This document shows positions 19,242-23,067 of a DNA stretch of 64,000 bases, one piece after another. The first letter of the stretch is position 1. Each line of letters opens with the position of its first letter. Under the pieces are notes generated by a model. That model made no database searches, was not told the origin of the DNA, and saw nothing but the letters and a program-made list of their open reading frames with translations. The position numbers and the translations under genes were made by a program. This stretch comes from Iphione sp. A-MEVVRFRX5 (lineage: Eukaryota): positions 113,026,001-113,090,000 of the forward strand of contig OZ320313.1 of the NCBI GenBank assembly GCA_976226885.1, read 5' to 3'.

Positions 19242-19949
19242 TTGTGCGACATGATGCGATCGTCTCTGTCGACTGGATTATTCTTATTGGCTTTACTTTT
19301 GATGTTTCAACATGCCGCGAGCAGTGGTGTTCTTTGTCGCCGCTGCATTTGTATACGTGAGTCCATATACTGTAATTCTGTGGCTACGAGCTTCTTTTTT
19401 TCTGTGCGTCATACCTATCATGGATACCGTCGCCTGTACCTCAATGCACCGTACATCGTTGACAGTGAAGACTCCTTGCGTAAACAATTACAACGAGTGT
19501 TACCAGACCTTGACTTTGTTGAAGCACTGAACATGGACCAGGATCGACTCTTCCGCATTGTTTTTCCTTTGGAAAGTACTACCTTACCCGGTTCTGAATT
19601 GAATCCAGCTGTTGGGCACCGTGATGTACCCTCGGGTAATGGCGATGACGGAGTTACTCGCACCGTGTTGGTAATTACTGATTATCCCCACATGCCGGAA
19701 TTGCCCGGATTCTTGCCTGACGTTCATGTGACTGCGCCATCTCATGCGGTTGATTACCAGACACTCTCATATGCTTTAGTGACAGCCATTATTCTCGTGC
19801 TGATTGTCGGCTCAATTCTATATCCATGCATCAAGTACAGGCTTTATAAGAAGTGTTTGCCTTCTTCTTCTCGATATGTGGGAGTTGTTGCAACTAGTAT
19901 TGATGGGAGCGAAATTCTCACTCCTCCTTCGACACCTGCACTTAGGTAG
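19242..19949 (+). CDS. Type I membrane protein with LRRNT-like Cys cluster; probably exon 1 of a longer spliced gene
   Basis: Signal peptide GLFLLALLLMFQHAASS; CRRCICIRESIYC; YRRLYLN; TM ALVTAIILVLIVGSILYPCI followed by KYRLYKK. First ATG is 19251. Donor AG|GTAGGT at 19946 overlaps the stop codon. Confidence 0.8.
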   Translation: MCDMMRSSLSTGLFLLALLLMFQHAASSGVLCRRCICIRESIYCNSVATSFFFSVRHTYHGYRRLYLNAPYIVDSEDSLRKQLQRVLPDLDFVEALNMDQDRLFRIVFPLESTTLPGSELNPAVGHRDVPSGNGDDGVTRTVLVITDYPHMPELPGFLPDVHVTAPSHAVDYQTLSYALVTAIILVLIVGSILYPCIKYRLYKKCLPSSSRYVGVVATSIDGSEILTPPSTPALR

Positions 19950-20116
19950 GTCTCATCTATTACCTCTATGTAGAAACTAATGATGTAACATTAACTATAT
20001 TTAATAGATATGGTATCTGCTGGTGTAACATAACATAGTTTTTATAACGTCTTCTTTGAGAGTAACTGTGATTTATAGATAGATGTATATATATATATAT
20101 TATAAATATTGTCTAT

Positions 20117-22717
20117 ATGTTCCCACCCCCCTTTAGTTTACCCGGCTACATCGAACTCGAGTTTCCTGATTATTCTTCATTATCATCATCTCCATCATCG
20201 ACTGCTGAAGTGAATACTGCTACAACTTCTGTTGATTTCTCAACAGGACCCGCACGACATCATACGTATAGTGATGCATCTGACTTTGTTGGTGCCTTGG
20301 CCTCTCCCCTTGTTCCTGATTCGACCTTTGAATCTATCCCTCTTCATGCTTTTACTCCTGCTGACTACCAAAATGATTATCTCGATATTCTTCCCTATTC
20401 CGACTCCGTCTTTTCGACTATGTCTTCGCACTCGTCTCGTACTAATCGACATAATGTTACGTTTTCTGATACCGCCATGTATATTGAACCCCACTCTGAT
20501 AGCCCCACTTGTCACGTCTCGTCTTATTCTCCTTCGTCTATTAGTATAACTTCTACTTCCACCACAACCACCACCACCACTACCACTACTAATAAACTTA
20601 TTGATATTTCTTCTTCTTCTTCTTCTTCTTCTTGTGTGTCGGCTCGACCTCTCCCCCCACCTCCCCCTATCCCCGATGTATATGGTGTGGCTATCTCTCA
20701 TGAATTTCTACCTGCAGCTGGCGTTCCCATATGTCCTCCTCCCCCACCTCTTGATGATAACAGTGTCTGTAGTAATGACAGTGCTGTCACTGTCATCTCA
20801 AATGATACTACCCCACCTGTTTCGGTCCCCTTCTCTCGCTCATTCCCTACGCTCACTACTTCTACTCCTATTACGTCTTCCTCAACCTTGACTATGTTTG
20901 CTGATGTATCTAACAGATCCGCACCTTCCCCTTTGGCAGACTGTACTGCTGCTACTACTACTACTACTACTACTACTGCAGATACTTGTAGTGATGGACT
21001 GACGTCTCTTATGCATGCCGACTTCCCCTCTACATCTCGTTTGCCTATTCCTAATCATTCTACTATGTCTACTTCTTCCAGTCTTGCACGACCTATTTCG
21101 TCTGATGGATTCGATTCATCACTTGTTTATCGACCAAATCCACGCCGTCCTCTCCGACCGGACCTCTCCGTACCCTCGTCCGGCGGTGCTCTGCAACCTG
21201 TTCTCCCCCCACGTGTATTTCCTACTCCTCGTCCTCCCTCTTCTTCACTTTCAAGGCCATCACAACCGTCACCGGTGCCACTATCAGTACTTCAGGCAAG
21301 GATGCGAGCTCGCCCTCAGATTACTCCAGTCACTGGTGTATCTCCTATTTCTGGGAGGGTTCCATGCCCCACTGTCAGTGCGGCAACAACAAAAGCGGTA
21401 GCAACAGCAGCAGCAGCAGCAGCACCGATGGGTCATACTGCGTCTACTTGCACTGTTAATTATGCAATACCATCTACTTCTTCCGATCCGCGTTCGGACT
21501 ATGTGCCTTTTGTAACGTCGCACTCTGACAACTCTACCACCATTGCCGCTGCCGCCGCCACCACCACCACCACAGCCACCACCGCCGCCGCTGCCGCCGC
21601 TGCCGCTGCCGCCTCATTTGGTGATGCTACTACTGTTGCTGCTCCCTCCGGTGCCATTCTCTCTACCTCCACCACCACCACCGACACCACCACCGACACC
21701 AGCGGTACTCCTGGTGAGCGATCAACATTATCGGGGACCAATAATGCGCAGCCTGATTCTACTTCGACGCCTGATTGCAAATCTTCTCGCAGTTTGATGA
21801 GTGAGTCACCGCCTGTTACTGCTCACCAGCGGTTGATTGACCCGTCTGCCGTGTCATCGTCGTCAAGGTCTACCACAGATACAGCATCGCTCGATGGAAG
21901 TATACTCGAACCAGATATGACCCGCACACTATTGTCGAATTCCGATGTTCGTGCCCCTCGTCAGAATACTGCCGCTGTTGTTCCCGATGGATGTGGAGAC
22001 GAAGAAAATATGGATGTGGAGCGTAGTGATACACCGACCCCCATGCCTGTGTTGTCTCCGACTGCCCTCGAACGACTGCGTGCCTCGGGCTTTTTGACGT
22101 CTTCATCCCAATCTGAACGTGTCCGGATGTCCACTTTCTTGTTGACGGCTTCGTTCCGTCCGCCAGTTCGACGACGGTTGTGTATATCCTCCGACATCGA
22201 TGTTGAATGTACCGTCTCGGATTCATGTAGACGATTGCATGGACGCCGCTGCCCTTTCCATCATGACCCCCTCTATGTTGATGACATAGAACAGGTACCA
22301 TCTAAGCGTGTTCGACGATCCAGTGGGTCCTCTAGTGTCTCGGAGTCAGCTCTCAACGGGCCCCAACCACCACTTCCATGTAGTCTGACTGAACTCAAAC
22401 ACGATCTTCTCCCCACTTCCAGTGCTGCTGTCGTACCTGAACCTGCATCAACATCATGTCAGGATAGCACTCTTGAACAATCTAGTACTTATTCTACTCC
22501 CACATCTACTCCTCGAGCTGCATCTGCCACCACAAAGCGTGGGCGTCGACGACCAAGTGTCTCATCTACTGTGTCTGATGCTGGTTCAGTTTCATCGACT
22601 ACTTCGAGTGGGTATCACTTGCGTAGCAGAGATCCACCTCATACTCCTGTTCGTCGCTCGCCACGCGTAAGTATATATATATATATATATATATATTCAC
22701 TAGTATCGACTATCTAA
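20117..22717 (+). CDS. Long Ser/Thr/Pro-rich, probably disordered ORF (866 aa); likely the spliced cytoplasmic extension of the preceding membrane protein
   Basis: 2.6-kb open frame with only triplet-repeat expansions. Acceptor TGTTCCCACCCCCCTTTAG| at 20136/20137 is in matching phase. Donor CGC|GTAAGT at 22667 near the end. Confidence 0.75.
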   Translation: MFPPPFSLPGYIELEFPDYSSLSSSPSSTAEVNTATTSVDFSTGPARHHTYSDASDFVGALASPLVPDSTFESIPLHAFTPADYQNDYLDILPYSDSVFSTMSSHSSRTNRHNVTFSDTAMYIEPHSDSPTCHVSSYSPSSISITSTSTTTTTTTTTTNKLIDISSSSSSSSCVSARPLPPPPPIPDVYGVAISHEFLPAAGVPICPPPPPLDDNSVCSNDSAVTVISNDTTPPVSVPFSRSFPTLTTSTPITSSSTLTMFADVSNRSAPSPLADCTAATTTTTTTTADTCSDGLTSLMHADFPSTSRLPIPNHSTMSTSSSLARPISSDGFDSSLVYRPNPRRPLRPDLSVPSSGGALQPVLPPRVFPTPRPPSSSLSRPSQPSPVPLSVLQARMRARPQITPVTGVSPISGRVPCPTVSAATTKAVATAAAAAAPMGHTASTCTVNYAIPSTSSDPRSDYVPFVTSHSDNSTTIAAAAATTTTTATTAAAAAAAAAASFGDATTVAAPSGAILSTSTTTTDTTTDTSGTPGERSTLSGTNNAQPDSTSTPDCKSSRSLMSESPPVTAHQRLIDPSAVSSSSRSTTDTASLDGSILEPDMTRTLLSNSDVRAPRQNTAAVVPDGCGDEENMDVERSDTPTPMPVLSPTALERLRASGFLTSSSQSERVRMSTFLLTASFRPPVRRRLCISSDIDVECTVSDSCRRLHGRRCPFHHDPLYVDDIEQVPSKRVRRSSGSSSVSESALNGPQPPLPCSLTELKHDLLPTSSAAVVPEPASTSCQDSTLEQSSTYSTPTSTPRAASATTKRGRRRPSVSSTVSDAGSVSSTTSSGYHLRSRDPPHTPVRRSPRVSIYIYIYIYSLVSTI

Positions 22718-23067
22718 AAATGTCATATTACAAACATGTGAATAATTTTCCCAACTATTTAAATATCATATAATATAATAAATATAATATAATGTATGTA
22801 TGTATGTACGTATGTATGTATGTATACTATAAATGTCCAAACTAATACCATGACTGCTGTTTTTTTTATATTTCTAGTTCAAGTAATCCCGATGCTGGTG
22901 ACTGTGTTCGAGTGGTGATTCTCTATAGACTGATGTTCCCATCTTCGTCATATGATGGTGACTGTGGCATCTGCAATGCCGACATCTATAATCCACCTAT
23001 TCATACATATATGTGAAAAAACAGATACTTCTTCTCGCTGGATCTCGTCTCGACTGATGCTCATCGC

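Follow-up and report, generated by a model that had tools for sequence, protein, structure and literature searches.

The window analysed here, a stretch of 64,000 nucleotides (nt) from Iphione sp. A-MEVVRFRX5 (contig OZ320313.1), carries a Polinton/Maverick element in which an open reading frame (ORF) of 232 amino acids (aa) with a predicted membrane helix is followed by an ORF of 866 aa. The question raised by this locus is whether the two ORFs are separate genes or parts of one, and what the resulting protein could do. As a preliminary description of this DNA had proposed, they can be regarded as exons of one predicted type I membrane protein whose cytoplasmic tail is long and disordered, since the splice signals and the phase are kept across families of the element. 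It is very probable that splicing occurs and that the long form is the functional product, and the splicing itself is probably constitutive. The gene is real, conserved and probably spliced, and would represent an unnamed family of proteins, of putative function, within an element of a known kind.

Probable splicing of the two reading frames

When the coordinates were rechecked, the splice signals were located where they had been placed before. Intron 1 has the donor AG/GTAGGT at 19945/19946 and an acceptor ending in CCCTTTAG/T at 20136/20137, which opens in the right phase into the 866-aa frame, and the intervening DNA is AT-rich, as had been noted (Table 1). Intron 2 has the donor CGC/GTAAGT at 22666/22667 and its acceptor at 22877/22878. 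The coding exons total 3,234 nt and predict a product of 1,077 aa, slightly below the 1,080-1,090 aa that had been claimed. In the hydropathy profile there is a weak N-terminal peak and a single strong helix at about residues 174-194, with none in exon 2.

A DNA search identified 20 copies at 95-100% and 5 at 69-73%. The comparison of sister copies that had been suggested as a check came out clearly, with GT, AG and phase retained in 19/19 other close copies and exon 2 open over the covered part in 18/19. Distinct indels were multiples of three in 46/46 cases in exon 2 versus 2/12 in the intron; as the indels in both are mostly microsatellite slippage, this contrast is taken as supporting evidence only. 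By the same tests the second intron also appears real, since it was found in 8/9 longer close copies, the ninth being missed by the probe, and at the same position in 14 of the clusters described below.

For more distant families, protein searches of the 1.18 Gb genome gave 500 and 533 candidates, of which 150 each were scored. From these copies a hand-picked sample of 63 loci, the window included, was examined; it falls into 30 clusters at 85% ectodomain identity and reaches down to 39% ectodomain identity to the window. A phase-2 donor was present about 26-49 codons beyond the membrane helix in 58/63 loci and in 30/30 clusters, and the five loci lacking it have a frameshift or an early stop or have lost the GT. 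After inspection of the data the donor pattern was broadened, and the same pattern occurred at phase 2 in 15/378 control windows. Acceptors were picked blind to phase, and phase 2 fitted in 21/25 representatives, one further representative having no anchor motif. Intron 1 was 143-407 nt long in 19 loci, with a GC content of 22-39% compared to 41-50% in the flanking exons.

Family B has an ectodomain that shares 78% aa identity with that of the window. Over its first 15 codons past the acceptor there are 8 synonymous versus 2 non-synonymous differences, and these conserved codons precede the first ATG of that family, while the last 30 intron bases match the window at only 9/30 positions. Consensus donor and acceptor, a phase that is kept and an intron sequence that drifts, all of which were observed here, are the features of a spliceosomal GT-AG intron. 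Among the 63 loci, none carried head and tail in one intronless ORF.

It was initially hypothesised that regulated retention of intron 1 toggles between a short-tailed and a long-tailed form of a tyrosine-signalling adaptor. The donor does overlap a stop codon in 48/58 loci with a donor, one more being ambiguous, and a retained intron would there give a clean short protein. However, a phase-2 donor that starts with GTAA, GTAG or GTGA creates an in-frame stop by arithmetic, and most donors are the consensus GTAAGT. In nine loci from 8 clusters the donor is GTATGT, GTACGT or GTACAA, no stop is present there and the unspliced frame continues into low-complexity intron sequence. Conservation thus extends to the donor and its phase but not to the stop, which is a by-product of the donor sequence. 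The unspliced C-termini have nothing in common, and poly(A)-like hexamers in intron 1 occur at chance level (7/19 observed versus 7.4 expected). With the tyrosine motifs also not conserved (see below), the toggle is very improbable, and constitutive splicing is the simpler reading, although some retention may occur. That the 232-aa ORF and the 866-aa ORF (ATG at 20117) are expressed independently as two genes is scarcely credible, because the in-frame ATG that lies 20 nt upstream of the acceptor in the window has a counterpart before the acceptor in just 6/19 loci, the family B codons are conserved upstream of its first ATG, and donor and acceptor phases agree across families.

Table 1. Positions in the window of the membrane gene, its conserved parts and the surrounding features
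Feature	Position	Strand	Description
Exon 1	19251..19945	+	695 nt, ends in phase 2; predicted signal peptide, Cys-rich ectodomain, stalk, one membrane helix, cytoplasmic stub of ~38 aa
Conserved ectodomain core	19332..19574	+	Four Cys near start; small beta/alpha fold, weakly LRR-like
Predicted transmembrane helix	19770..19832	+	Hydropathy peak 2.62; followed by conserved [YVIM]-P-C
Predicted intron 1	19946..20136	+	191 nt, GT-AG, phase 2, 28% GC
Exon 2	20137..22666	+	2,530 nt, 843 full codons, 43% Ser/Thr/Pro, no membrane helix
FESIPL	20327..20344	+	Most widely kept motif at tail start; fits core LIR pattern; 15/16 tails
VTFSD	20456..20470	+	RVxF-like candidate PP1 docking site, one sub-clade; Asn rather than Arg/Lys directly before Val in the window
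RRPLR in Pro-rich stretch	21143..21157	+	Candidate SH3 or kinase docking site, one sub-clade
Cys/His cluster	22200..22265	+	Possible small zinc knuckle; 10/16 vs 0.6 expected
C-terminal basic tip, YHLRS...RRSPR	22613..22666	+	HMGN/Dsup/Dot5-like; next residue comes from exon 3
Predicted intron 2	22667..22877	+	211 nt, phase 0, immediately 3' of RRSPR
Exon 3, coding part	22878..22886	+	9 nt: two codons and TAA stop
Head-to-head partner gene	17801..18697	-	Signal peptide, mini-LRR ectodomain, Ser/Thr stalk, membrane helix, short basic tail ending at donor (17800)
Polinton/Maverick element	4544..25998	.	21,455 bp; ends AGTAGT...ACTACT
GC, guanine-cytosine; LIR, LC3-interacting region; LRR, leucine-rich repeat; PP1, protein phosphatase 1.

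Conserved parts of the tail and head

Motifs were defined on 16 tails and then tested on 20 loci fetched afterwards (held-out loci), with expected counts taken from shuffles; as shuffles ignore relatedness, the counts reflect conservation and not independent origins. Two motifs persisted. At the start of the tail, F[EKQ][STN][IV]xL was found in 12/20 held-out loci compared to 0.8 expected, and in 17/20 when Asp/Asn was allowed; F-x-[ST]-I-x-L, often preceded by Ser, is present in 24/30 clusters. At the other end, RRSxR was found in 14/16 tails and in 15/20 held-out loci (0.7 expected), and it terminates the tail in 25/30 clusters, with tail lengths ranging from about 310 to 1,085 aa.

RRSxR is immediately followed by a donor in 14 clusters, which is the position of intron 2. 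In the 11 clusters without this intron, the residue after RRSxR is Ile, Leu or Val in 10, giving RRSARI, RRSARL or RRSSRI, and where it is spliced, the first residue of the top-scoring final exon is Leu, Phe or Met in 10/13 families. The motif can therefore be described as RRSxR plus a hydrophobic residue, and in part of the family intron 2 interrupts it. An HMGN-like RRS-x-R-hydrophobic sequence was found in 25/30 clusters, the window carrying a variant with Pro. Basic clusters lie close to this tip, and [YHCR]-x-LR[SKR] is found upstream of it in 12/30 clusters, a motif that resembles the LANA and Gag peptides of viral chromatin tethers. Outside the tail, the [YVIM]-P-C that follows the membrane helix is kept in 24/30 clusters.

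The other motifs are more restricted. RRPLR was present in 15/16 tails and RRPL[RH] in 1/20 held-out loci; the RVxF-like VxF[SANG][DE] was present in 9/16 tails (0.3 expected) and 2/20 held-out loci; and [YH]xLR[SK] was found in 2/20 held-out loci compared to 3.6 expected. Their failure in the held-out loci confines them to the sub-clade of the window. The definition of RVxF used here is that of PP1 regulators of the GADD34/ICP34.5/DP71L type, as given in the accessible part of PMC10807198. PxxPPR occurred in 8/16 tails versus 2.0 expected. The Pro-rich and RRPLR motifs are conserved in one part of the family only. The Cys/His cluster was not enriched in the held-out loci (10/20 versus 8.1). 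A polo-box site (2/16 versus 1.1 expected) and an Fbw7 degron (14/16 versus 12.6) were also considered and dropped.

The tail of the window does contain YIEL, YSSL, YLDI and the Pro runs as previously described. The suggestion that they make the tail a tyrosine-signalling mimic of the LMP2A, Tip or middle T kind was not borne out, as YIEL-type motifs occurred in 2/16 tails, YxxPhi in 13/16 compared to 14.2 in shuffles, and both the immunoreceptor tyrosine-based activation motif (ITAM) and PPxY in 0/16. The likeness to these proteins is that of a membrane-anchored disordered viral scaffold made by splicing, with Pro-rich stretches, whereas the topology predicted here is the opposite (type I with a signal peptide), and ITAM, PPxY and conserved phosphotyrosine motifs were not found.

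The ectodomain, which has four invariant Cys, was modelled with a mean confidence (pLDDT) of 78.9 as a Cys-rich start followed by short strands alternating with helices. In the fold search the best LRR match was GPIb-beta (Z 4.7, root-mean-square deviation 4.7, 71 residues aligned), which is below the reliability level of the tool. The top match was the unrelated HEN1 (Z 5.6), and LRR matches (Z 3.4-4.7) were interspersed with unrelated folds that rank equal or above. Pfam detected no LRR in 34 family members. The description of the gene as LRR-like is therefore only suggestive for its own ectodomain, and the clear case is that of the head-to-head partner gene, in which all 50 top fold matches are LRR-type by title (best Z 7.1). 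The partner adjoins in 40/42 loci, and the two ectodomains have no profile similarity to each other. The small Cys-capped head before one membrane helix and the paired partner gene resemble GPIb-beta/GPIX; the differences are that there are four Cys only, no C-terminal cap and no sequence similarity, in addition to a fold match below the reliable level.

The partner ORF terminates at the donor GAG/GTAAT (17800/17801, minus strand), and most families end this ORF at a similar position, with E, Q, G or M before the junction and V after it. As the ORF ends at a donor-like site, the partner probably has a short last exon too.

Possible functions of the spliced product

The reading that we tentatively prefer, and consider possible rather than probable, is that of a membrane-anchored chromatin tether. 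The gene would be constitutively spliced to give a single-pass membrane protein, whose long disordered tail would grip nucleosomes through the terminal RRSxR and so tether chromatin to the nuclear envelope or the endoplasmic reticulum (ER) membrane. Two steps are the weakest: the protein, still anchored in the membrane, would have to meet chromatin at the inner nuclear membrane or when the nuclear envelope re-forms, and F-x-[ST]-I-x-L may recruit a trafficking or autophagy factor. A likely use of such a tether would be to keep the DNA of the element, or host chromatin, at the envelope while replication, integration or the exit of particles takes place.

This reading was chosen because an anchor, a long flexible linker, clusters of basic residues and a tip of the nucleosome type form a layout that permits import to the inner nuclear membrane in yeast, where, according to the accessible part of PMC4695851, membrane proteins are imported actively if they have a nuclear localisation signal (NLS) and a disordered linker. 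The part of it that we consider somewhat probable, judged from motif likeness, is that the tip binds the acidic patch of H2A-H2B. In the portions available of PMC12487698 and PMC13347269, RRSARLSA of HMGN, RRSSRLTS of Dsup and RRSARIAT of Dot5 are described as binding this patch of the nucleosome. The present family shares with them RRSxR plus a hydrophobic residue in a disordered protein, several families having RRSARI, RRSARL or RRSSRI; it differs in that the motif lies at the end of a membrane protein, that an intron interrupts it in 14 clusters, that its position 4 is Pro in the window, and that binding is only predicted. Viral tethers to the acidic patch are established as far as the accessible text of PMC9040877 goes, and KSHV LANA, cytomegalovirus IE1 and foamy virus Gag likewise have a short arginine-anchored peptide that ends a disordered viral protein. 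However, these three are soluble and contain a part that binds the DNA or RNA of the viral genome, and no such part was found in the product of this gene.

Several points weigh against a tether. The window has RRSPR followed by Phe, with Pro where proven binders carry Ala or Ser, and RRxS is also a common site for basophilic kinases. In 5/30 clusters the stretch read has no RRSxR, and as the families are related, the motif counts are not independent events. A signal peptide, an LRR-like head and an LRR partner suit the cell surface better than the nuclear envelope. Finally, a tail of 880 aa is large for access to the inner membrane, for which a diffusion-retention model has reportedly been published (PMC4460150).

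A cell-surface or endosomal adaptor, paired with the LRR partner, would account for the signal peptide, the LRR-like head and the adjacency of the partner gene in 40/42 loci. In such an adaptor the Pro-rich, RVxF-like and F-x-[ST]-I-x-L motifs would rewire host signalling or trafficking, and RRSxR would merely be a kinase site. The enrichment of RRPLR, PxxPPR and VxF[SANG][DE] in the 16 tails fits this explanation, but the docking motifs are nearly absent from the deeper loci (1/20 and 2/20), in which RRSxR plus a hydrophobic residue persists, and conserved Tyr signalling motifs were not found in the 16 tails. An adaptor is therefore rather unlikely.

Another explanation could be a Notch-like relay, in which cleavage of a surface or ER protein, within the membrane or close to it, would release the tail to move into the nucleus and bind nucleosomes there. 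This would reconcile the surface-type head with the NLS-like basic clusters and the HMGN-like tip, and short ectodomains are typical of substrates of intramembrane proteases. We nevertheless consider it unlikely, as no cleavage site was identified, the Fbw7-type degron was not enriched, and no folded domain binding DNA or transcription factors was found in the tail with Pfam or Atlas.

The FESI-type motif, which besides RRSxR is the most widely kept (24/30 clusters), could also belong to a mimic of an organelle-phagy receptor, with an anchor, a disordered linker and an LC3-interacting FESI that routes pieces of ER or nuclear envelope to autophagy. F-x-x-I, often after Ser, fits the core LIR as set out in the accessible part of 10.1101/2022.02.11.480038. 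However, this core is very common, the strict P-L after FESI lies outside it, and the rest of the tail and its tip are left unexplained, making the mimic improbable.

If the tether is confirmed, a virus-like element would be exploiting host chromatin or the nuclear envelope in a new manner, through a membrane protein whose tip binds nucleosomes. The tip would also be the first HMGN-like motif tied to a mobile element, as far as the literature searches made here show.

The Polinton, its relatives and its other genes

The Polinton is flanked by a 6-bp target-site duplication, GCTATC (4538-4543 and 25999-26004), and its ends are terminal inverted repeats of the AGT-repeat type, for which inverted arms were found. 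Among the ORFs of the window, pPolB matched PF03175 (E 8.8e-6, just under the curated cut-off), a retrovirus-like integrase (PF00665) and a chromodomain were matched, and the ATPase gave a weak match (E 0.016). No fitting Pfam match for a major capsid, minor capsid or protease was found among the ORFs of this Polinton; the capsid-like and protease-like ORFs are presumed to be such from gene order, size and characteristic features.

The order of the core ORFs is conserved upstream of the membrane gene in other families, and core genes were present in 11/11 families whose upstream DNA extended to the core module. The membrane gene sits in an accessory region of the Polinton, as a fixed part of at least 30 families rather than sporadic host cargo. 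Candidate copies of the ectodomain number at least 500 in the genome and fall into at least 30 families, with many near-identical members and open frames, consistent with a large and recently active Polinton radiation within one genome. That several hundred candidate copies exist, many with open frames, suggests that the gene is under selection for the life cycle of the element itself.

In its position the gene resembles other Polinton/Maverick accessory genes, lying in an element with pPolB, integrase, ATPase-like, capsid-like and protease-like ORFs. In the accessible text of the relevant papers, vertebrate Mavericks are described as lacking introns (PMC8097293), nematode Mavericks combine core genes that lack introns with cargo genes that contain them and also carry MFUS-1, a fusogen and type I membrane protein (10.1101/2022.07.12.499685), and a survey of adintoviruses lists PLA2X, GasderminX, cupiennin-like and Oncoid genes (10.1101/697771). 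The protein described here is mentioned in none of these three as far as their accessible text goes, and it differs from MFUS-1 in that it is no fusogen and has an 85-aa head and an 880-aa tail. The introns mentioned for such elements in the portions available of 10.1101/2023.08.22.554363 and PMC12220804 are self-splicing only. No account of the gene was found in the literature on Polinton introns or on membrane and LRR genes, with Repbase, most subscription papers and supplements lying outside the coverage.

Outside this genome, no homologue scored for the 232-aa ORF, none was found for the ectodomain alignment among proteins of 169-2000 aa, and none for the partner alignment. A profile search of 1.84 billion representatives gave 3 matches, all to tandem-repeat proteins over about 30 residues, which were rejected, and one IMG/VR locus (L105) gave a match of 30 residues (E 6e-4). 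There was no match for the product in PDB sequence searches, none for either ORF in Pfam and none with E below 0.001 in Foldseek; with Atlas, all leads for the head were below 0.9 and tail residues 620-843 gave nothing.

The pPolB gene (5380-11542, plus strand) appears to be spliced as well. Three phase-0 GT-AG introns (5590-5720, 5949-6236 and 6465-6616), with 18-28% GC, join four open exons, and joining them would add about 251 aa and an extra C2H2-like finger ahead of the first ATG. The exon layout is alike in two other loci (L126 and L139) and also in a third (L138), in which the 3' part differs. The pPolB product has N-terminal C2H2 fingers and a C-terminal NADAR domain (11096-11470, plus strand; PF08719, E 1.8e-10). 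The apparent introns contradict the intronless core genes that have been published. The usual annotation of a Polinton is a set of ORFs without introns, and if the introns are spliced, ORF calling has split their genes, pPolB included. The wider picture, which we regard as quite possible but short of probable, is that animal Polintons encode a cassette of two spliced membrane genes, in which a mini-LRR anchor, a disordered arm of a thousand residues and an HMGN-type nucleosome tip make either a viral membrane-to-chromatin tether or a receptor that, like Notch, releases a tail to bind chromatin; with pPolB apparently spliced too, the transcription programme of the element would be adenovirus-like and not intronless.

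At the right end of the element, a Cys-containing ORF (24210-24995, minus strand) is conserved, with about 62% identity in family B. It has no start of its own and is open upstream to an acceptor-like site near 24996, and is probably another spliced gene. The likely 3' ends of both membrane genes contain short tandem repeats of 39-46 nt as well as runs of poly(A/T), at 17413-17525 and 23126-23620.

Among the other copies, one locus (L093, 6245-9000) carries gag- and pol-like ORFs of a long terminal repeat retrotransposon inside the tail exon, and two (L109 and L112) have foreign ORFs downstream. In exon 2 of L095 the tail contains an internally repeated peptide, which is found off-frame in L094 as VTRFPDG repeats.

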